A stretch of 64,000 bases of DNA from Poseidonia sp. Lineage in GTDB: Archaea > Thermoplasmatota > Poseidoniia > Poseidoniales > Poseidoniaceae. The number at the start of each line of letters is the position of its first letter. Position 1 is the first letter of the stretch. The notes under the pieces are model-generated. The model was not told where the DNA came from. It saw nothing but the letters and a program-made list of their open reading frames with translations, and made no database searches. Shown one piece after another: positions 12,422-38,370 of the stretch. The stretch lies in NCBI GenBank assembly GCA_016778305.1, contig JADHPT010000002.1, positions 3,649 to 67,648 on the forward strand. Direction: 5' to 3'. A program made the position numbers and the translations under genes.

Positions 12422-13344
12422 TGGCGATATGGATTGAAGAAGATGCAAAAGTACTCGTTCAGGGTATCACCGGAAAGCAAGGCCAATTTCACGCAGATAA
12501 GATGGTGGAATATGGTACTCAAATCGTCGGAGGATGCACGCCAGGAAAGGGTGGACAAAGCGTTGACCTTCAAGGCAAAGCCTTTCCAGTTTGGGATTCT
12601 ATGTTTGAAGCCATTGAGGCAACTGATGCAGATGCAACCGTCATCTACGTTCCTCCCCCATTCGCAGCAGAAGCCATCATGGAAGCCGCAGACGCCTTTG
12701 ATTCAATCAAAGGGGAAGGCGTTGTTGTCTGCATCACGGAAGGGATTCCCACACTCGACATGGTGAAAGCCGTCGCCTTTGTGGAAAACCGACCCGGTGT
12801 CCGTCTTATTGGACCAAATTGCCCCGGTATCATCACCCCTGGGGATGGCGGAGGAGCAAAAATTGGAATCATGCCCGGCCACATTCACGCAAAAGGTCGC
12901 ATCGGAATCGTTTCCAAATCGGGAACGCTGACCTATGAGGCCGTGGCTCAAACCATGAGCATTGATGAAGGACAATCGACCTGTGTTGGAATCGGAGGCG
13001 ACCCCGTCAATGGAACAGGTTTCATTGAATGTTTAGCAGCCTTTGAGGCCGATGAACAAACTCAGGCTATTGTCATGATTGGAGAAATCGGCGGTAATGC
13101 CGAGCAAGAAGCGGCTGCATGGGCTGCTGAAAATGTGACTAAGCCAATTGTTGGTTTCGTCGCTGGCGCAACTGCTCCACCCGGTAAGAGAATGGGGCAT
13201 GCTGGAGCAATTATCTCTGGTGGAAAGGGAACCGCAGAAGAAAAGTTTGCTGCTTTTGAAGCAGCAGGTATCGCTTGTGCCAAGGACCCTTCAGAACTAG
13301 GGAGTGTACTCCTAGAGTCGTTAAAGAAAGCTGGCCTAAGGTGA
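12421..13344 (+). CDS. sucD: Succinyl-CoA synthetase alpha subunit.
   Basis: CoA-binding N-terminus ([11 protein letters not shown]) and GPNCPG motif. Confidence 0.85.
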
Positions 13345-13353
13345 GAATTAGTA

Positions 13354-14631
13354 ATGAAAGATTTTGATTTTAATCAATATTATCAAAATCATGAAGTTGA
13401 CTTTACTTGGCTAGAAAAGCCTAGTCAGCACGAATTTCGCTGGCGCTGTGCTGATGGTAGTTGGCGAAAGTCAAAACGAAGAGTCAGTTCAATTGAGACA
13501 TTCAGGAAATCAATTTCTCAAGATAATCCTAGTGACCTCTACTTTTCCACATCTTCTTGGCTAAACCCTATTGATTTGCCAAGACTAAGTGATGAAACAA
13601 GACCTCACCCCATTCTTTTGAATCACTTGATTGTGTTTGATATTGACTTCGCCCCGTTATCTCTTGAGAACTTAGAACAGGCTAGAACAACAACACTGAA
13701 ATTACACAACTGGATTGAAAAAAATTATGATTATGAATTAATATCAATCTCATTCTCCGGTAGCAAAGGTTTCCATCTATTCTACCATGATCTAGACAGG
13801 AGTTTATTTTCCATTGAAAATGCAAGGGAAAGAGAACATGCCGTAAAAGCAGCGCGCAATAAATTGCTCCAAGAGGTATTGCTGTCAGGTTTCAAAGTAG
13901 ACCCAAGGATTACTGCTGATACCCGTAGAATCATTCGCTTACCCGGCAGTATACACGGCAAAACAGGATTATTATGCCACAGGATAAGTCTAGAAAGATT
14001 GAGCAAGAGCGTTGATTCTTGGATTGATCAAGTTCCTAGCTTTTTTGGGCAATTAGAAATGCCTAAGACTGCAAAGGCTCAAGATAAAACAACGGTAACG
14101 AAATACCTCAAAGAAAAAGAGGAACAAGTCGAACAACACACCTACATGATGGAAGTTAGCAATCACTTACCTGGAACCAAGGATAGAAGCGCACTAATCT
14201 TTTGGACACCTTATTCGTGGGGTACAGGTGCAAAATGCTTTGAACGTTTAAACACTCTAATAGAAAAGGAAAATCTAGACTGTTGTGCTATTTTTTCTGA
14301 TGGGGAAAGAGTTCTTTTCATTTGCCCTGAATCTATCACTAGGGCAAAGGTAGTAAAAATTCTAAGCGAGCTAGGTATTGAGAAATTATCGGAGAATCTA
14401 AAACAAAGAGAACATTATTGGGTTAGAATATCGGGTATAATGGATGATGATGGTATATGGCACAATGAGCCAAAGTTTATCTCTATTATTAACAATAATA
14501 ATTCAACATCAATTTTTTCAAAAGCACACTTAACATTACTAACTAAACTTGGTATTCCCATTGATAATTCTCAACATGATAAACTCGCAGGAAACAGTGA
14601 ACCAAGCATTAGAATGGTTGTTCGAGACTGA
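13354..14631 (+). CDS. Archaeo-eukaryotic primase superfamily PrimPol-like protein (425 aa) with an uncharacterised C-terminal half.
   Basis: AEP motifs are present: VFDIDF (DxD), SGSKGFHLFY (sxH) and RIIRLPGSIHGKTG. The gene starts 10 bp after the sucD stop. Its base composition is very AT-rich. Confidence 0.7.
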   Translation: MKDFDFNQYYQNHEVDFTWLEKPSQHEFRWRCADGSWRKSKRRVSSIETFRKSISQDNPSDLYFSTSSWLNPIDLPRLSDETRPHPILLNHLIVFDIDFAPLSLENLEQARTTTLKLHNWIEKNYDYELISISFSGSKGFHLFYHDLDRSLFSIENAREREHAVKAARNKLLQEVLLSGFKVDPRITADTRRIIRLPGSIHGKTGLLCHRISLERLSKSVDSWIDQVPSFFGQLEMPKTAKAQDKTTVTKYLKEKEEQVEQHTYMMEVSNHLPGTKDRSALIFWTPYSWGTGAKCFERLNTLIEKENLDCCAIFSDGERVLFICPESITRAKVVKILSELGIEKLSENLKQREHYWVRISGIMDDDGIWHNEPKFISIINNNNSTSIFSKAHLTLLTKLGIPIDNSQHDKLAGNSEPSIRMVVRD

Positions 14632-14724
14632 TTATTTATAGACTGCTTGCCGATACCTCAGATTGTCCCCAATGGAGTCTTAGGACTGTGACATTTTTCT
14701 AAAGAAGTAGAAACAATCGGTGAC

Positions 14725-14756
14725 GGCGCTCGGGGACAGCGCCTAGCCACATTTTT
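14725..14756 (+). terminator. Hairpin (GGCGCT-7 nt-AGCGCC) followed by a T5 run. Candidate terminator after the PrimPol gene.
   Basis: Perfect 6-bp inverted repeat followed by an oligo-T tract in the intergenic gap. Confidence 0.3.
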
Positions 14757-14764
14757 GTGATAAT

Positions 14765-15418
14765 ATGGTTTTAAGAAAATATATTTCAACCGTATCACTT
14801 TGTTTTCTCTTGATAGGATTAATCACACAGTCTTATCGTGATCCTGTTCATCCAGGATTATGGCTCACTTTATCTTGTTTTGTTGGTTTTGCATTATTTT
14901 GTCAAATACTTGTTAGCGTCGGGATTATGGAAATTTCGGGGCCAAAACAGGAAGCAAGAAGAGTTAGACTCGGAAATAATCAACACACTAATGATTACCG
15001 GTATTATCATTACAAATCAATAGTTGCTAAAGTACAATCAAGTGGAGTAACTGTAACTACCGTTGAAGATGCTATCAAGACATATTCAAGTTTGTTCAAT
15101 GTCGGACAAAAGGCAGCAAGGCCTTTTTTTCACAATCAGTTTGTCATGTCTACTTTGGGATTAAGTAACCAAGTAATAGATTCTCCTTCACAAGTCATAA
15201 ACCCATCTAACGATAAATCCAAAAAATTAGATTCAACCTTTTGGGATAATGTTTCAAAGGGTGTTGCAATAAATGAAGGAAACTCTGATGAAATTTGTGC
15301 AGACCCTAACTGTTCAAAGCCTGTGTCTGCATTTGATTTCCGTTGCTTCAAGTGCCGAAGTAGATTCTGTGGTGATTGTGAAAGTGGCAAGAGCATTATG
15401 TGCAAGGCATGTTCATAG
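14765..15418 (+). CDS. Membrane-anchored protein with a C-terminal multi-Cys zinc-ribbon cluster.
   Basis: Two N-terminal TM helices. C-terminus reads CADPNC...CFKCRSRFCGDC...CKAC. Low GC, like its neighbours. Confidence 0.5.
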   Translation: MVLRKYISTVSLCFLLIGLITQSYRDPVHPGLWLTLSCFVGFALFCQILVSVGIMEISGPKQEARRVRLGNNQHTNDYRYYHYKSIVAKVQSSGVTVTTVEDAIKTYSSLFNVGQKAARPFFHNQFVMSTLGLSNQVIDSPSQVINPSNDKSKKLDSTFWDNVSKGVAINEGNSDEICADPNCSKPVSAFDFRCFKCRSRFCGDCESGKSIMCKACS

Positions 15419-18196
15419 GAATATTTCTTTTCTGTGTAAAGAATTTTGAGGGATCATCGTAGATGCCTTAATGATTTCAACTCTCATTTTACCATCTTTA
15501 CTTCTTGCGTAAAATAGCTCTGATGGGCTGACAAATTGATTCCAATATTGCTGGAAGATTTCAGCCTTTTCTGATGATGCAGCCAGAATTTTGGGGACTG
15601 TGTGGTACATTACAAGTTTGTCTTTTACTGGCCTGAAAAACTTGGCAATAACTTCAGGCATGAGTTTTGATAACCATGTGTCGGTAATAAATTTGGAAGA
15701 ACGGGAAATAACATATCTTGGCTTGTCTAATGGTCCAAGTATTTCCTCTAAACAAGCAGTAAACAATGCACTCTCTTCTTCAGTAGCATTCTCGAGATGT
15801 AAGCGTACCCAGCCACCTCCTCGATTACCACCATCTGCCCGACAATTCCTCGAAACCATTCCAAGATGGATGAGGCTGTTGATTATTGAAAGTGAAATGG
15901 CTTTTACTAGAGATTCGTCAGTCCAAGGTGATTTTTCTCTACCAAACTTAAATCCGCCACCAAAACCAGTACTTAACCTAGCTTCGATTGCTGAAGTTGG
16001 TTTTGCATTAAATGGTTGGCCTATCCCCCATAATCCTCTGAGATGAGTCCTATTCCGGCTACGTCGCAACATATCTTCATTAAATGCTGACATTCCCTCA
16101 CTTACTCCTTCTGGCTCAGCCTCAGTAAATGCTGCATGAACATGGCCAACTCCTTTCTCAATTGCACCATCATCACATACACCATACAGTTGCTTATGCT
16201 TTTTCTTGAAACGGTCATAATCAGCAAAGCCATTGGTGAACTCTTCCGCTAAACAAACAATATCCCAATTATTGGCAACTTTTTCCGGCCAGTTTTTATC
16301 TAATCTTATTGAGCGACCCCTCAGTTGATTGATACTCATGCTGGTAGTAACAGTTGTTAGATCGATTAGTACGTTGATTCGTGATGCATCCCAGCCTTCT
16401 CCAAGAAGACCTCGTGTTCCAATAAGACACTTTGTAATGCCTGATTGGAAAAACTCAGTTATCATTAACGAATAGTGTCGGGGAATCCAGTCCTTGCCTT
16501 TACCAATAATTTCATGATAATCTCCTCTTAACTCATCGATCAAAGTTATTGCTAGGTCTCTTTCTTTTATCCAATTATTTGCTGCTTTAAGGAATTCTTC
16601 CGCAAGGTCATCATCAACAAGTACTGTACTACCTGTCATCAAAATCGGATTTAGTAAATCTACATTATCGCATCGTACTGCTTGTCTAAATGCTGCAACT
16701 GCGCCACCTGCTTCATCATCCATCACCCCTTCGACCAAAGTCGTGGCTGATGTTTTCTCAAAATCGGTTATTATTACTGCTCGGATATCCCCGCCTAAGG
16801 CTTGCATTTCAGAACTTAGAATTGTAGATATTGCCTTTGTTTTTGATGATGCATAGGCCATTATCCTGCCGACTGGTGAGGCGCAAGGACGAATCCCTGT
16901 TTCAGTTATTTGAGTGCCTAACATCCGCAACCTTTGAGTAACCAAGTCTGCTTTTTTATGGTCCAATTTACTTTCACTTCTGCGTAATCCATGCCTTACA
17001 TAGCGGTCTAATACTGGTCTTAGTATTGCCAGCTTATTTTGGTAATTCTCTAAAAGGTGGCTTGGTGGATGAGGTACTCCTGCTGGCAAATCACCATTTG
17101 TGTAAATCAAAAAAGCCCTAGCTGCATCGGCAAACGCAGAGTTTCTTTTGGCAAATTGTTTCCAATCTTCCTCCTTACCCCCTGGGGATTTTCTTTCATC
17201 AAGAGCATCAAAAATCCATTTATTAATTGGTGCTGTGGCATCTTCATAATTTTGTTCTTGATGTAAATCATCGAGTATTTCCTTGAATTCTTCATCAACC
17301 TGTGCAACGTAATTTAATTCATTTTGCGATGGCCTAACAAAATAAGCCAGGTCTTGGTAAGGAGCTAGGTTTGAATCTCTTACTAAAGCCGGCACTGGAA
17401 CTTCATAGTCAATATCCCCAAAGAATTCTTGATATCTTTTAGAATCAATCTCATCATAATGTTCAAAATCCGGCGGAGTTGCTGTTAGGCCAAGGACAAT
17501 TGGATTATCGAAGTATTCTCGTACCTCTGTAAGAACTCTACCCCAATGGTGTAGTAAATGATGACACTCATCCAAGATTATCAAACCGATACCAACTTGT
17601 TTTAATCGCTCCAAGGTTTTTCTCGATGATTCACTTAGAGTCCATAAAGCGTTACCATGTTGCGAGAAATCATCTCTAACCTTTTTTCTATAGACCGATA
17701 TCCTATCTTCGAAATATTTGGTGTTTTTCAGCTGTAAATCATTTATCCAAGCAAGAGCAGATTCATCATCGATTGCCTCTTTTTTAGTAATTAATGACTT
17801 TATCCAAAGTTCAATTGCAGCCTCATCTAGATTCTCTCCTCCCATCTTTGGCATAGTTATTGACTGATATGTTAGACTGGTCAATAAACCAGGGTTTGCT
17901 GGATCAGTACTAATAAATTCATCTTTCCCATCTAAATCAAAAAGGTCGGTTCGTGCTGCCCACTGTGCCTGAATTGCTGAGTTAGGAGAGAGGACTAAGG
18001 TCGGTTTTCTTACCAGGTCAGACCAAACATACAGACCTAGTACTGTTTTTCCGGAACCTGGTGGAGCAACTATGTGTAAGTGCTTTCCTTGTTGATCTAG
18101 TTCAGGTTCAATTATTGAGGCAGCCGCTATTTGTGAAGGTCTTAATTTACCATTGAATCTTATAGCCCCAAATTCTGGTAAAGTTTCAGTGCCCAA
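15413..18196 (-). CDS. Superfamily-2 DExH-box helicase (927 aa) with a ~450-aa uncharacterised C-terminal region.
   Basis: Motif I APPGSGKT, motif II ILDECHH and motif III GLTATP are present. The helicase-C motif LRGRSIR is also there. Low GC. Confidence 0.7.
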   Translation of the reverse strand: MGTETLPEFGAIRFNGKLRPSQIAAASIIEPELDQQGKHLHIVAPPGSGKTVLGLYVWSDLVRKPTLVLSPNSAIQAQWAARTDLFDLDGKDEFISTDPANPGLLTSLTYQSITMPKMGGENLDEAAIELWIKSLITKKEAIDDESALAWINDLQLKNTKYFEDRISVYRKKVRDDFSQHGNALWTLSESSRKTLERLKQVGIGLIILDECHHLLHHWGRVLTEVREYFDNPIVLGLTATPPDFEHYDEIDSKRYQEFFGDIDYEVPVPALVRDSNLAPYQDLAYFVRPSQNELNYVAQVDEEFKEILDDLHQEQNYEDATAPINKWIFDALDERKSPGGKEEDWKQFAKRNSAFADAARAFLIYTNGDLPAGVPHPPSHLLENYQNKLAILRPVLDRYVRHGLRRSESKLDHKKADLVTQRLRMLGTQITETGIRPCASPVGRIMAYASSKTKAISTILSSEMQALGGDIRAVIITDFEKTSATTLVEGVMDDEAGGAVAAFRQAVRCDNVDLLNPILMTGSTVLVDDDLAEEFLKAANNWIKERDLAITLIDELRGDYHEIIGKGKDWIPRHYSLMITEFFQSGITKCLIGTRGLLGEGWDASRINVLIDLTTVTTSMSINQLRGRSIRLDKNWPEKVANNWDIVCLAEEFTNGFADYDRFKKKHKQLYGVCDDGAIEKGVGHVHAAFTEAEPEGVSEGMSAFNEDMLRRSRNRTHLRGLWGIGQPFNAKPTSAIEARLSTGFGGGFKFGREKSPWTDESLVKAISLSIINSLIHLGMVSRNCRADGGNRGGGWVRLHLENATEEESALFTACLEEILGPLDKPRYVISRSSKFITDTWLSKLMPEVIAKFFRPVKDKLVMYHTVPKILAASSEKAEIFQQYWNQFVSPSELFYARSKDGKMRVEIIKASTMIPQNSLHRKEIFL

Positions 18197-18208
18197 AAGT
18201 AACCCTCA

Positions 18209-19825
18209 TCATCTAGGAGGGCCACGCTTAGGTCCCTTCGGAAGGCCGCTTTTCGGACCGCCCGATGGAGGTCCTCTTGATGAGCCACCAGGTGGTCCCG
18301 GTTTCTTGGTTGGTGGTGATTTTGATGGAGGTGATCTTCCCGGTGCCTTAGATGGTCCGCCGGGTGGGCCGCCTTTGGATGGACCGCCGGGTGGGCCGCC
18401 TCTGGATGGACCGCCCGGAGGACCGCCGCTCTTCTTCGGACCGCCCGGAGGACCGCCGCTCTTCTTCGGACCGCCCGGAGGACCGCCGCTCTTCTTCGGA
18501 CCCGGAGGACCGCCGCTCTTCTTGGGACCGGGTGGACCGCCGCTCTTCTTCGGACCCGGAGGACCGCCGCTCTTCTTGGGACCGGGTGGACCGCCGCTCT
18601 TCTTGGGACCGGGTGGACCTGAGCGGGATGGAGTAGGAGCTTGTTCTTCCTCTTCTTCTTCTTCGAACACAGCGCCACAATGTGGACAAGTGGAGTCGCT
18701 TTCTTTCACCAAACCATCGCATATTTCACATGCAAACATGTCTTCTTCTGGTTCCTCTTCGCCGATTTTCTCTGTTTTGCCATCCTTGGAACGGAACAAT
18801 GTCACGGTACATGACAGGTCATATCCCTTGAGGGCCATTTCAGTTTGGATGGCATGTTCAAAGGCTTGCGTCAAATCTTCGGGAGTATCCAACACTCTTC
18901 CATCGTCAACATAGGTCACATTCACCTGGAAAACATCTCCTTCCAGCTTACATTGTGGGGCTTCAACGGCAACACCACGTTTTCGTGCTACCCTGCGAAT
19001 GGCAACTTCAGAGATTCTACGGAGAAGTGCATCATTGGGCGCATCATTACTGCTGCCACCAAGAGCGCCTGCCATGATCTCCGCAGCAGGGTTGACTGCA
19101 TCAGCACCTCCTGCACGGAGATGGGCTGGAAGCTCTCCTCCCCCAAGGTTTGCAAGGACGTTTGAGGCAGGTGATTGGTTCATCGAAAGCCATTGACTAC
19201 GTCGCTCATCTTTGACCGCTCGCTCAGCTTCTGCCAAACGATTGACCATAGCATCGGTTGGTGAATTGGCGGGATTGTGCGCGATTTTCGTTCCTCCGGG
19301 AGAAAGTGGGGAGACGTTATTGGTTGCAGGAAGAGCGCCGCTTGCAATCGACGGCCCGCGAGGGATGGTTGGCAAATCAGATGCAGGTGGCATATTCGTT
19401 GGTTGAGGTTGGGGGGGGAATTGGTTGTTCGGGAGATAACCGCCTTGCAAAGGTTGGTTGGGATAAACGCCAGGTGGAAGATTTGGTTGTTGTTGAATAC
19501 CTTGTGCCATACCCTGCAACATATCGGGGGAGATTTGACCCATTTGGTTCATATTATGTTCCTGTTGCATCCGTTGGTCATGGCCTGCGACGGGGTCAAA
19601 TGTACGTGGTTGTTGAGGGAAAGGAGGAAGATTTTGAGGTATGTGTTGAGGGGGGTTTGGCTGGAAGCCTCCAGCAACTGTGTTATCTTGCCTTGCGCCG
19701 CATTCAGGGCAGAACATACTGTCTGCTGGAATAACTTCTCCACAAGAACCGCAATTCATGGTGCCCTCTCCTGTAAGATACGCTTGGGTCACCCTTCCTA
19801 AAGCATTGTGTAAAAAAGCCATCAA
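18209..19825 (-). CDS. Pro/Gln-rich low-complexity protein with N- and C-terminal zinc ribbons and tandem PPGPKKSGG repeats. The start is more likely the internal Met near 19759.
   Basis: CGSCGEV...CPEC and CEIC...CPHC zinc ribbons. An acidic E-run and about 10 tandem basic Pro-Gly repeats. Only 13 bp separate its stop from the helicase start. Confidence 0.55.
   Translation of the reverse strand: MMAFLHNALGRVTQAYLTGEGTMNCGSCGEVIPADSMFCPECGARQDNTVAGGFQPNPPQHIPQNLPPFPQQPRTFDPVAGHDQRMQQEHNMNQMGQISPDMLQGMAQGIQQQPNLPPGVYPNQPLQGGYLPNNQFPPQPQPTNMPPASDLPTIPRGPSIASGALPATNNVSPLSPGGTKIAHNPANSPTDAMVNRLAEAERAVKDERRSQWLSMNQSPASNVLANLGGGELPAHLRAGGADAVNPAAEIMAGALGGSSNDAPNDALLRRISEVAIRRVARKRGVAVEAPQCKLEGDVFQVNVTYVDDGRVLDTPEDLTQAFEHAIQTEMALKGYDLSCTVTLFRSKDGKTEKIGEEEPEEDMFACEICDGLVKESDSTCPHCGAVFEEEEEEEQAPTPSRSGPPGPKKSGGPPGPKKSGGPPGPKKSGGPPGPKKSGGPPGPKKSGGPPGGPKKSGGPPGGPKKSGGPPGGPSRGGPPGGPSKGGPPGGPSKAPGRSPPSKSPPTKKPGPPGGSSRGPPSGGPKSGLPKGPKRGPPR
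18355..18625 (-). repeat. In-frame tandem repeat of 27-30 bp with about 10 units, including three identical 30-bp copies.
   Basis: Units of type ggaccgcccggaggaccgccgctcttcttc repeat head-to-tail. They encode PPGPKKSGG. Confidence 0.85.
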
Positions 19826-19853: not shown

Positions 19854-20936
19854 TTGCAAGAACTTCTCGACACATATCTTGATGGAGAGGAGGAATCTGG
19901 GGCAGACTGGTGCGGTTGTATGTCAGTTCTGATGAACGCAGAAATTGATGGGTTACTTGAGCGTACATCGCGTTCGTTTTATCCGACTCTGAAATATTTG
20001 CCGAAGAAAATCAGGGGGCAAATAGGTTTACTGTATTTGCTCGCCCGTGTTGCGGATACCATCGCAGATTCAAAGCACGGTGAGACTCAAGTCCTTCTGG
20101 ACCTCCTGAGCGATTACAATGATGTTGCTCAAGGACGATCTGAATCCCTTCCTGACTTTAGCGTACTTGCTGAAATTCAAACCAACCCGGATGAAGCAGA
20201 ACTGCTTCGAAATGTGGAACCTGTCGTAGCAGGACTACAGGATTACGATGCCGAAGATCAACAGCGAATGCTCGAATGCCTCGAAGTGATTGTTGGAGGT
20301 CAAACCCTTGACCTCCAACGCTTCGGAACTGCGAAAGAAGGAGGCAATATTTCTGCGTTATCAACCGAAGAGGAACTGGATGATTATGCGTTCAGAGTAG
20401 CGGGTTGTGTCGGTGTGTTTTGGACAAAGATGTCGCTTGCCCATTTGATGACGCTACCTCCCGATAAGGAGAAGATGTTCATGGAAAAAGGGATCCGTTT
20501 TGGTAAGGCCCTTCAGATGATTAACATTCTAAGAGATATTCCTGAAGACCTTCGCTATGGCCGTTGCTACATACCAATTAGTGGCTTAAAAGATCACAAC
20601 CTTGAGCCAACCAGCCTCCTTGATGAGGGAAATCTCGAGGCTTTTCGCCCCCTTTATGATTCATACCTCGACCTCACGAATGAACATCTTGAAGCGGCAA
20701 CCGATTACATCAGAATGATTCCTGAAGGTCAATTCCGTCTCAAGGCTTCTGTGATGCTCCCCGTTCTTATCGGCCAGCGTACCGTTACACTCCTGCGTAG
20801 TGGGAATATACTGAACTCAGATGAGCGCATCAAGGTGACTCGAGATGAAATCAAATCCTATGCAAGAAAGTTACTCCGGGCCCTTCTAATCCCCGGTGGC
20901 GTGCGAAGGTTGCTTGAAAAGAATAAAGATCCATGA
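19854..20936 (+). CDS. Squalene/phytoene synthase family enzyme, paralogue 1.
   Basis: Substrate-binding motif YLLARVADTIAD (DxxxD) and a second Asp-rich region. Confidence 0.7.
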   Translation: MQELLDTYLDGEEESGADWCGCMSVLMNAEIDGLLERTSRSFYPTLKYLPKKIRGQIGLLYLLARVADTIADSKHGETQVLLDLLSDYNDVAQGRSESLPDFSVLAEIQTNPDEAELLRNVEPVVAGLQDYDAEDQQRMLECLEVIVGGQTLDLQRFGTAKEGGNISALSTEEELDDYAFRVAGCVGVFWTKMSLAHLMTLPPDKEKMFMEKGIRFGKALQMINILRDIPEDLRYGRCYIPISGLKDHNLEPTSLLDEGNLEAFRPLYDSYLDLTNEHLEAATDYIRMIPEGQFRLKASVMLPVLIGQRTVTLLRSGNILNSDERIKVTRDEIKSYARKLLRALLIPGGVRRLLEKNKDP

Positions 20937-21061
20937 ATCTACTCTATAGAATTTAAAGTGGTAAGTTTACAAGTACTTACATATGTTAAAAAACTCCATG
21001 TCTGTTCGCACTTGCGAAGGGAGGTCTCTTAAACAAGGGACGCGAGGGATTGACGGATAGG

Positions 21062-22360
21062 ATGCTAGAACGCCGCAAACCACTCGATCTTCTATTCCCG
21101 CTCAAGGGGAATGCTTCCTCCCGTTCGGAAGAGGAAGAAGTCCGTCCTCCAACGACGCTTGAACGTCTTCGAGCCGGTGTAACACTTGCCCGAGATGCGG
21201 TCAAGGCGGTCAGCGTTACAGCGATGGAAGCCCTTCGTGAGGGTGCATCATTTATCGGAATCGTTGGTGATACCAATGAATTGGTTGATCCCTTTGAATA
21301 TCTTGACGCACCGATTTGGTCTGAGCACCCTCCGGCTGAATTGTACAAGTTAGCATACCGTTACTGTGAGGAACTCACCCGTCGTGAAGCGGGTAATTTT
21401 TACCACTCCTTCAAGTATTTGCCCGATGAGCAGCGAATGGCCATGTGCGCTATCTATGCATTCTGTCGCCGTGCTGACGACATCGCTGACGGAGACTGGG
21501 CAGACAGATTCCCCGGCAGCAAAGGCGAGATGGACCCTGAAGCAGTGACCTACCGCAACAAATTGGAATCGCTTCAAAATAGAGGCACTATCCTTGATGA
21601 AGATGCCTATCACAACAAGATCACACAACTGTTCTTTTTCCGTAAAAAACTCTCAACATGTTACAGCGATGTTTATTCAACCGACCCTGTGTTCTTGGCC
21701 CTCAAAGACACTGTCGAACGATACGGGATCCCACGCGATGTCTTTGACGACCTTATCTCTGGAATGGAGGACGATCTCTATAACAACCGATACCGAAGTT
21801 TTGATGAACTCTACGTCTATTGCTACAGAGTCGCTTCCGTGGTTGGATTGATGTGCATTGAAGTCTATGGGTACGAGGATCCAAGAGCGAAGAAATTCGC
21901 TGAATCCTGGGGCATCTTCATGCAATTAACCAACGTGTTGAGGGATGTTGGCGAAGATATTCAGCGTGATCGTGTTTACCTCCCTCTCAACGAACTCGAA
22001 CGAAACGAGATGCGTGAGGATGAACTGAACGGACGTATTGTCCTGAACAAGCATTGGGAGCCTTATGTCCGCCAATATGCTGCCCGGGCACGCACTTATC
22101 TTGAAGAGGCACGAGCACTCCTACCACTCCTACCTCGTCGTACACGGTATTCTCCAGCTGCGATGATTGCATTTTACGACAAGATTTTGCGCCAAATAGA
22201 AAAGCAGCAAGGTGACGTGTTTACTCGTCGCGTGAAACTGAATAAGATCCAGAAAATCTCTCTCGCTGCTGCCGTCTATCTGCGACACCGATTCCTCCCC
22301 GCATTCCTTGATCCTGTTTGGGGCGCTCTTGCCAAGGTCGGAATTCTTCCCGCCGTTTGA
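21062..22360 (+). CDS. Squalene/phytoene synthase family enzyme, paralogue 2 (CrtB/HpnD-like).
   Basis: YAFCRRADDIADG motif and a second DxxxD motif. Confidence 0.7.
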   Translation: MLERRKPLDLLFPLKGNASSRSEEEEVRPPTTLERLRAGVTLARDAVKAVSVTAMEALREGASFIGIVGDTNELVDPFEYLDAPIWSEHPPAELYKLAYRYCEELTRREAGNFYHSFKYLPDEQRMAMCAIYAFCRRADDIADGDWADRFPGSKGEMDPEAVTYRNKLESLQNRGTILDEDAYHNKITQLFFFRKKLSTCYSDVYSTDPVFLALKDTVERYGIPRDVFDDLISGMEDDLYNNRYRSFDELYVYCYRVASVVGLMCIEVYGYEDPRAKKFAESWGIFMQLTNVLRDVGEDIQRDRVYLPLNELERNEMREDELNGRIVLNKHWEPYVRQYAARARTYLEEARALLPLLPRRTRYSPAAMIAFYDKILRQIEKQQGDVFTRRVKLNKIQKISLAAAVYLRHRFLPAFLDPVWGALAKVGILPAV

Positions 22361-38283: not shown

Positions 38284-38287
38284 AGAG

Positions 38288-38370
38288 CGCCGAGAGAGGG
38301 ATTTGAACCCCCGCGTCCAAGGGACAGTGGATTTCGAATCCACCGCAATACCGGGCTATGCGACCTCGGC
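38288..38370 (-). tRNA. tRNA-Ser (anticodon CGA), class II with a long variable arm.
   Basis: Manual fold of the minus strand. Acceptor stem GCCGAGG/TCTCGGC. Anticodon stem GTGGA/TCCAC with loop TTCGAAA. Variable-arm stem GTCC/GGAC. T-arm GGGGG-TTCAAAT-CCCTC. Confidence 0.85.

Follow-up and report, generated by a model that had tools for sequence, protein, structure and literature searches.

A proposed distinct ResIII/XPB-like superfamily II helicase family with a conserved, fold-unmatched C-terminal region at a syntenic locus of Poseidoniales

The window considered here is a stretch of 64,000 nucleotides from Poseidonia sp. (assembly GCA_016778305.1, contig JADHPT010000002.1, positions 3,649 to 67,648 of the forward strand). 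On its reverse strand, positions 15413–18196 hold a complete gene for a helicase of 927 amino acids plus stop codon, as delimited by the open reading frame (ORF) call, by homologs of the same length and by the ratio of non-synonymous to synonymous substitution rates (dN/dS). The ORF begins with TTG and has no earlier in-frame start. Hundreds of homologs with 84–97% identity, mostly 927–930 amino acids long and labelled Poseidoniaceae, are found in the protein database, and the contigs that bear them reach 2 Mb. The dN/dS of the whole helicase is 0.063 and 0.047 against two relatives. On the strength of these homologs on contigs of up to 2 Mb and of a dN/dS of 0.05–0.06, the ORF is a real gene. 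It is chromosomal, single and under strong purifying selection, and its one syntenic site is fixed in Poseidoniales. The exact protein is already public; its 90% cluster holds proteins of 'Candidatus Poseidonia sp.' (e.g., MBL6743256.1), and the sole name carried in that cluster is 'DEAD/DEAH box helicase family protein'.

The anatomy of the protein was derived from Pfam, from an alignment of 34 diverse family members (A1) and from a full-length AlphaFold2 model (mean predicted local distance difference test score, pLDDT, 87.0; predicted template-modelling score, pTM, 0.86). The RecA1 lobe (residues ~10–290; 17327–18169, on the reverse strand like all features of the helicase) is defined by the Pfam ResIII match (residues 17–242; E value 5.8e-17; 62.5 bits against a cut-off of 22.5), by invariant columns and by alignment with XPB. 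The PHROG_16 family, 'DNA helicase', also matches the protein (E value 4e-26). RecA1 includes RxxQ (residues 19–22), motif I or Walker A with the sequence APPGSGKT (residues 44–51; 18044–18067), motif Ia (P71..Q78-W79), motif Ib/Ic with the sequence LTYQ (residues 108–111), motif II, DECHH (residues 209–213; 17558–17572), and motif III, TATP (residues 238–241; 17474–17485), the last recognised by motif search and alignment. Invariant positions are P45, P46, G47, G49, K50 and T51 in motif I and the Asp, the Glu and both His residues in motif II, where the Cys is conserved in at least 90% of the family and is otherwise Ser. The RecA2 lobe (residues ~441–654; 16235–16876), assigned from Pfam Helicase_C (residues 581–632), the AlphaFold2 model and the alignment, starts with a lead-in helix, 'SSKTKAISTILSSE', followed by the strand RAVIITDF. 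It carries motif V, GTRGLLGEGWD (residues 593–603), and motif VI, QLRGRSIR (residues 624–631; 16304–16327), in which Q624, G627, R628 and R631 are invariant. Motifs I, Ia, Ib/Ic, II, III, V and VI are all intact and invariant across the 34 family members, and the protein is a superfamily II (SF2) helicase/translocase of the ResIII type.

Apart from the C-terminus, the unassigned sequence of the helicase consists of three inserts. Four helices form an insert within RecA1 (residues ~113–200; 17597–17860), which was delimited by the secondary structure of the AlphaFold2 model and by a gap against the XPB profile alignment. Between the lobes, the model places an all-helical insert (residues ~291–440; 16877–17326) that is the least constrained part of the helicase (dN/dS ~0.12) and that had no match to any family, the insert domain of the RIG-I-like receptors (RLRs) included, in Pfam and profile searches. 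RecA2 itself carries a beta-rich insert of ~45 residues (525–570). The four strings on which the initial annotation of this gene was built are all present: APPGSGKT at residues 44–51, ILDECHH at 207–213, LRGRSIR at 625–631 and GGNRGGGW at 789–796. That annotation had also placed about 450 motif-free residues after the helicase motifs and had taken residues ~480–927 as a domain of its own. Since motifs V and VI sit late in the protein, only ~296 residues follow motif VI, and the proposed span takes in most of RecA2.

The family-specific C-terminal region (residues 655–927; 15416–16234) was modelled separately from a 16-sequence alignment, and the resulting model of 273 residues has a pLDDT of 87.6 and a pTM of 0.84. 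It comprises a junction made of a helix and a beta-hairpin, a helical segment, a low-confidence loop (residues 746–756; 15929–15961), and alpha/beta units with beta-alpha-beta patterns, which are basic and ferredoxin-like. A Foldseek search of this model against 350,542 PDB chains returned nothing below an E value of 0.001, the best match being the periplasmic head of SecDF (E value 0.027); the weak matches are mostly ferredoxin-like sandwiches (Cas6/Cse3, ACT, PII, chlorite dismutase), and the list contains no nuclease fold. Foldseek against BFVD, Pfam on each of the 16 aligned members and the C-terminal profile against PDB sequences likewise gave no match. A C-terminus acting as nuclease or sensor, as first suggested, was thus rejected: a sizeable region with no recognisable relative does exist and could be modelled well, and no nuclease fold or motif was found in the model, by Pfam or by the profile searches.

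The C-terminal region is not a variable tail, because it contains invariant residues and has a dN/dS of 0.03–0.04, the same as RecA2. Invariant positions are D659, R662, H667, G682, H685, W723, R832 and P868, and W885 and W926 come close to invariance. In its distal half the region is basic (isoelectric point, pI, 9.1; median of the family 9.5; pI above 8 in 82% of members), unlike the motor part, which is acidic. We infer that the region is a binding or regulatory module. At its junction with RecA2, residues 655–690 (window ~16127–16234) contain the invariant polar cluster D659-R662-H667-G682-H685, with the consensus G..D..RF.RKH....G...DG.IE.G..HV.P; this cluster might bind a metal or phosphate, or might act as a latch for the motor. 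The GGNRGGGW patch (residues 789–796; 15809–15832) corresponds to the turn of a beta-hairpin in the model and is poorly conserved, with just one Arg and one Gly semi-conserved in the family.

Among the known SF2 clades, the core is nearest to XPB/Rad25 by sequence. The NCBIfam XPB model is matched by 34 of 34 diverse family members (best E value 2.4e-16), the Hef model by just three, and the Lhr, Hel308 and UvsW models by none. When the family profile was searched against all PDB sequences, S. tokodaii XPBII came first (3.4e-17) and A. fulgidus XPB (AfXPB) next (1.3e-15); yeast and human XPB scored 1e-8 to 1e-11, Hef 2.5e-8, MDA5 1.4e-5 and a Dicer-related helicase 2.7e-5. The parts that align with XPB/Rad25 are RxYQ, motif I, motif Ia (P..Q.W) and TYQ/TYD, then DExHHL and GLTATP; at the level of residues, homology extends across motifs Q, I, Ia and Ib and is weaker over II and III. 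The structures compared were those of AfXPB (2FWR/2FZ4), S. tokodaii XPBII (5TNU/6P4F) and eukaryotic XPB/Ssl2, and XPB/Rad25 likewise has extra structure between the RecA lobes. The JGI name 'superfamily II DNA or RNA helicase' presumably corresponds to an XPB/SSL2-type COG. The best reading is that the helicase represents a distinct family in the XPB/ResIII-like part of SF2, outside the Hef/RLR/Dicer clade. The initial annotation had placed it inside that clade as a RIG-I/Hef/Dicer-like protein, and the profile, which puts XPB (3e-17 to 1e-15) ahead of Hef and MDA5, contradicts this placement; the outcome that the annotation had set against its own view, a core grouping with repair helicases rather than with the DECH clade, is largely what was found.

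The helicase itself is not an XPB, since it scores only 31 bits against a cut-off of 610, lacks the damage-recognition domain (DRD), does not conserve the position of the RED motif and has no Bax1 gene nearby. The precise NCBIfam scores are 30.8 bits against 610 for repair_heli_XPB and 17 bits against 328.7 for TIGR00603. The N-terminal DRD of XPB is absent and there would be no room for it, because the helicase core begins at residue ~10–17. The RED motif of AfXPB, within 'TFEREDGRHE', aligns with the family consensus 'TATpPdeadeee' and with 'TATPPDFEHYDE' in the present protein, and motif II is DEVHH in XPB and DECHH here. Archaeal XPB is about half the size of this helicase, which differs from it by three large inserts, one in each RecA lobe and one between them, and by the unique C-terminal module of 270 residues. 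Near the RecA1/RecA2 junction, where XPB has its thumb-like (ThM) insert, there is a much larger helical insert; the one alignment obtained, to residues 254–320 of XPBII (2.1 bits), is not significant. Bax1, the nuclease partner of archaeal XPB, is not among the Poseidoniales neighbours, namely a PriS-like primase, a 217-amino acid ORF, a zinc-ribbon protein and squalene/phytoene synthases.

The Lhr, Hel308, Ski2-like and Eta helicases are likewise large SF2 proteins with C-terminal accessory domains. No profile of the Lhr, Hel308 or Ski2-like families matched at an E value below 1e-3 (NCBIfam, PDB), and Hel308, Lhr and Ski2 are missing from the top 50 Foldseek matches of the whole model. The C-terminal model had no Foldseek match to the winged-helix or ratchet modules of Lhr, Hel308 and Ski2; the possibility raised at the outset, that the C-terminus would turn out to be an accessory domain of the Lhr/Hel308 kind, was not borne out. 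Eta (7UJB, PMC9371683) was retrieved by neither sequence nor fold search. A relationship to Eta, Lhr or Hel308 was rejected on these grounds.

The extent of the family was determined by an exhaustive HMMER search over 1.84 billion representatives, which gave 2,185 clusters at an E value of 1e-3 or below and 843 clusters (50% identity) at 1e-30 or below. Most members have 900–1,070 amino acids and align across nearly their full length; those with names belong to Chloroflexota/Anaerolineae and Actinomycetota, and the names are generic. In species-representative genomes, identity with the present helicase is 55–85% for Poseidoniales (both subgroups of Marine Group II, MGIIa and MGIIb) and 46–50% for Planctomycetota. 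Homologs with 28–40% identity occur in Melainabacteria/Obscuribacterales, Chloroflexota, Actinomycetota (Nocardioides, Microbacterium, Actinomadura and a Mycobacterium metagenome-assembled genome, MAG), Bacillota (Acetivibrio), Lentisphaerae and some Proteobacteria. No archaeal lineage other than Poseidoniales is represented among the best 80 loci. In a neighbour-joining tree of 62 full-length sequences, Poseidoniales are monophyletic (100/100 bootstrap), they group with Planctomycetota (100/100), and within the latter they join Planctomycetia, leaving out a Phycisphaerales sequence (100/100). These three splits are the reason why the distribution would fit a single ancient transfer from a planctomycete to Poseidoniales, i.e., from bacterium to archaeon. 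An earlier paper reports extensive interdomain transfer into planktonic Euryarchaeota (PMC4122925).

A further feature separates the clades of the family. Of 227 long homologs, 203 contain one or two strongly hydrophobic 19-mers beyond residue 600. In the alignment A1, a hydrophobic span is present in 25 of 33 homologs, and in all 25 it starts after residue 754 of the present helicase, inside the low-confidence loop (746–756), which is thus the insertion site; it lies wholly at this site in 23 and extends into aligned columns in two. The inserted hydrophobic hairpin has 30–70 residues, often with basic flanks (e.g., residues 753–798 in homolog P0136 and 825–881 in P0137). It probably serves as a membrane tether on an otherwise cytoplasmic enzyme in most bacterial members, judging from its hydropathy. 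The Poseidoniales/Planctomycetota clade, the present helicase included, has no such hairpin, and its version of the protein is presumably soluble.

Literature searches returned no description of this helicase family. As far as we searched, the architecture with three inserts and the C-terminal fold, the hairpin and the planctomycete-to-Poseidoniales transfer are undescribed; the kind of motor is already known, and homologs with generic annotation, of which this gene is one, number in the thousands. Members occur in at least eight bacterial phyla, and their annotation is just 'DEAD/DEAH box helicase family protein'; once a single member had been characterised in a host that can be grown (Paenibacillus, Microbacterium, Nocardioides or Acetivibrio), thousands of genes could be annotated from it. 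Little is known about how Marine Group II archaea, which rank with the most abundant plankton not yet in culture, maintain their DNA. The helicase probably matters for the genome biology of Marine Group II, because MGIIa and MGIIb have both retained it at a fixed position next to a primase gene.

With moderate confidence, we propose that the protein is a stand-alone, ATP-driven SF2 translocase or helicase of ResIII/XPB-like type that would act in genome maintenance and carry a C-terminal recognition module. Most likely it would use ATP to move along DNA that is duplex or branched, and would thereby remodel or open it, instead of working as a replicative helicase by strand exclusion; this step is suggested by the nearest relatives (XPB, HsdR/Res, Hef, RLRs), which are translocases on duplex or branched nucleic acids, and by the lack of a ratchet of the Ski2/Hel308 type. 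Its role would probably be genome maintenance or remodelling, and the C-terminal module would probably be a substrate- or partner-binding or regulatory part rather than a catalytic one. Several points count against this proposal. The similarity to XPB is strong just in the N-terminal half of RecA1, and RecA2 scores slightly better against MDA5. The invariant D659, R662, H667 and H685 could form a catalytic or metal site, and the C-terminus might then be enzymatic. Distant relatives are the only basis for what is proposed on the substrate (DNA or RNA), on polarity and on the biological role, and the literature searches found no biochemical data on any family member. Finally, the trees are neighbour-joining trees without outgroup rooting, and the membrane hairpin was recognised by hydropathy alone.

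Among the alternatives, the one closest to the initial annotation is that the helicase is a member of the Hef/FANCM/RIG-I/Dicer 'DECH' clade, in which the inter-lobe insert would be the equivalent of Hel2i, the C-terminal domain a sensor or nuclease, and the protein an effector of immunity or repair with dsRNA or branched DNA as its target. The features in common are a DECH(H) motif II, which in this helicase is identical to the DECHH of MDA5 and Dicer, and an all-helical domain of ~150 residues between the RecA lobes, roughly at the position of Hel2i; such a helical domain is common to XPB (ThM), Hef and the RLRs (Hel2i). Foldseek with the whole model retrieves chicken MDA5, RIG-I, the ancestral Dicer helicase and Pfu Hef (E values 1e-12 to 1e-11) as readily as XPB, all of these lying between 1e-12 and 1e-10, and RecA2 aligns weakly with MDA5 (E value 1.4e-5). 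In these comparisons, however, template-modelling (TM) scores are low, 0.30/0.41 for the RLRs with a root-mean-square deviation (rmsd) of ~20 Å and 0.32/0.47 for TFIIH XPB with 6–7 Å, and the modelled structure is less discriminating between clades than the sequence, in which the profile prefers XPB by 9–12 orders of magnitude. The insert does not match the RLR insert domain in Pfam, the C-terminal ERCC4/XPF nuclease and HhH2 of Hef/FANCM were not found by Pfam, NCBIfam or Foldseek, the RD/CTD zinc domain of RLRs and the PAZ and RNase III domains of Dicer were not found by Pfam or fold search, no conserved Cys is present in the C-terminus of the family alignment, and the fold search of that region gave neither sensor nor nuclease. 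The phyletic origin of the family is bacterial, unlike that of the clade, and no defence context accompanies it. Moreover, DECH is not specific to one clade as had been assumed, because the type I restriction (R) subunit 3H1T, the best single-sequence PDB match of the helicase, aligns with 'IIDECHRG'; the DECH motif alone does not assign a helicase to the RIG-I/Hef/Dicer clade. What stands of the original description is an SF2 helicase with DECHH whose best structural matches include MDA5, RIG-I, Dicer and Hef, and the clade assignment by sequence profile does not stand; we regard membership as unlikely. A second alternative is a motor subunit, of the type I/III Res-like or Dnd/Pbe/Dpd-like kind, in a defence system that acts against phages or resembles restriction; its ATP-driven translocation on DNA would serve to sense or destroy foreign DNA. 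The R subunits of type I and III systems (HsdR of the EcoAI family, 3H1T) share Pfam ResIII, 'DECH' and 'GxTATP' with the helicase, the NCBIfam models dnd_restrict_1 and EcoAI HsdR are matched by 10 and three of the 34 members, respectively, and the best PADLOC match is PbeA (E value 6e-10), with weak matches to a type I restriction endonuclease and DpdF. These matches are limited to generic RecA1 motifs (residues 188–318 for PbeA) and fall far under the family cut-offs, and the nuclease fused to the R subunits (PD-(D/E)xK or other) was not found by sequence or fold. Adjacent methylase and specificity genes are absent from the window and from ~80 loci (flanks of up to 8 kb), and no methyltransferase, specificity, nuclease or defence gene is conserved near the helicase in those loci, where clustering of the neighbourhoods gave generic families only (ABC ATPases, rhodanese, Ser/Thr kinases). 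The gene is also a core, syntenic and vertically inherited one in Poseidoniales, and homologs occur in just two records of the phage collections and five of the plasmids, all non-mobilizable and of 238 kb to 1.26 Mb (25–37% identity). A defence system was rejected on the partial, weak PADLOC matches and the generic neighbours, and an origin from a mobile element on the scarcity of phage and plasmid records; the defence motor is, in our view, very unlikely.

Taken together, the lack of defence partners, the weak PADLOC matches and the near-absence from phages and plasmids leave the reading as an effector without contextual support. The initial annotation had called the protein an effector rather than a replicative helicase; it does not look replicative, and the claim of an effector finds no defence, methylase or nuclease partner at this fixed, syntenic chromosomal site. 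A third alternative, possible but doubtful, is a nucleic-acid motor that is associated with the membrane and has a new role, for example in processing DNA close to the membrane, in uptake or export, or in anchoring the nucleoid. In most bacteria the hairpin would provide the tether directly, and in Poseidoniales neighbouring zinc-ribbon or membrane proteins would do so indirectly. Consistent with this are the insertion of the hydrophobic two-helix hairpin at a single conserved position in the majority of bacterial homologs, the fusion of a zinc ribbon of the DZR type to the N-terminus of three bacterial family members (P0131, P0137 and P0248), the same type of ribbon in the product of the gene that lies 12 nucleotides upstream of the helicase on the same strand, and the abutting convergent ORF with its hydrophobic N-terminus and Cys-rich tail. 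Hydropathy, however, is no proof of membrane insertion, and the actinobacterial versions, being rich in Ala and Gly, are ambiguous. Ribbons of the DZR type are promiscuous, only a subset of Poseidoniaceae has the zinc-ribbon gene upstream, and the present helicase itself has no hairpin. More speculatively still in its scope, and with no better prospects than the membrane-associated motor, the family might be a widespread one of SF2 DNA motors with a new C-terminal fold, anchored by the hairpin in most bacteria, in which the invariant Asp/Arg/His residues of the junction would form either another active site or a latch that regulates the enzyme, and the family would carry out a membrane-proximal nucleic-acid transaction outside the known helicase classes; the Poseidoniales form would then be a soluble core gene of planctomycete origin next to a primase. 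The genome-maintenance translocase remains the explanation that we prefer.

The gene order around the helicase is conserved in Poseidoniales, a Thalassarchaeaceae genome included, as sucC-sucD-priS-(217-amino acid ORF)-helicase-(zinc-ribbon gene)-SQS-SQS. The PriS-like primase small subunit (425 amino acids; 13354–14631, forward strand) is convergent to the helicase and a conserved neighbour in Poseidoniales only. Its sequence is divergent (Pfam DNA_primase_S, E value 1e-8; under the NCBIfam PriS cut-offs), with amino acid identities of 39–69% between Poseidoniales genomes, compared with 75–95% for the adjacent SucD. The 217-amino acid ORF (14765–15418, forward strand) is also convergent and overlaps the helicase stop by 6 nucleotides. 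It has CxxC pairs in its Cys-rich C-terminal part, matched no family and is kept beside the helicase in MGIIa and MGIIb. Because both genes are convergently transcribed, they do not form one operon with the helicase, and a functional link to PriS was set aside: the adjacency is conserved, yet transcription is convergent and bacteria do not have the pair. None of the Poseidoniales neighbours accompanies the helicase in bacteria, where the neighbourhoods are mutually unrelated and, in annotated genomes, consist of metabolic or envelope genes.

The upstream zinc-ribbon gene (538 amino acids; 18209–19825, reverse strand) is probably co-transcribed with the helicase. Its product contains two DZR-type ribbons, C25–C42 and C366–C383, separated by a stretch rich in Gln, Pro and Asn, and the end of the gene holds ~10 tandem repeats of 27 nucleotides (18351–18619) coding for PPGGPKKSGG. 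Both the copy number of this unit and the length of the protein (397–538 amino acids) vary among relatives. The fusions in bacteria give a weak, Rosetta-stone hint of a functional link between the zinc-ribbon protein and the helicase. It was not adopted: there are three fusions, but the pairing as separate genes occurs in part of Poseidoniaceae only.

The helicase lies within a low-GC block of ~5.2 kb (13100–18300) that spans the 3' end of sucD, the PriS-like gene, the 217-amino acid ORF, the helicase and the 3' end of the zinc-ribbon gene. The GC content is 0.35–0.43 in the block versus 0.50 in the window, and at third codon positions (GC3) it is 0.27–0.31 for the PriS-like gene, the 217-amino acid ORF and the helicase. 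The block is 96–100% identical to a Poseidoniaceae genome with a GC content of 0.405 (L090), compared with 52–77% for the flanks, and in low-GC Poseidoniaceae genomes the genes of the block match the GC content of their own genome. The breakpoints are sharp, one at the 3' end of sucD and the other at the repeat-bearing 3' end of the zinc-ribbon gene. A foreign island was rejected as the cause of the low GC content, the block being syntenic with a low-GC Poseidoniaceae genome and, in this comparison, 98–99% identical to it. These comparisons argue for a recent inter-species homologous replacement of 5.2 kb of core genes. The window is 99.99% identical to the NCBI MAG contig JADHNA010000007.1, and three further NCBI 'Ca. 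Poseidonia sp.' MAGs (L087–L089, the one with JADHNA010000007.1 among them) show the same mosaic; replacement is preferred for this reason, and an assembly chimera is unlikely.

Beyond the zinc-ribbon gene, two tandem squalene/phytoene-synthase (SQS_PSY) genes (19854–20936 and 21050–22360, forward strand) form a pair that is conserved near the locus across Poseidoniales. Elsewhere, a single tRNA-Ser(CGA) gene (38287–38370, reverse strand) is the only Rfam/ARAGORN match in the 64-kb window.

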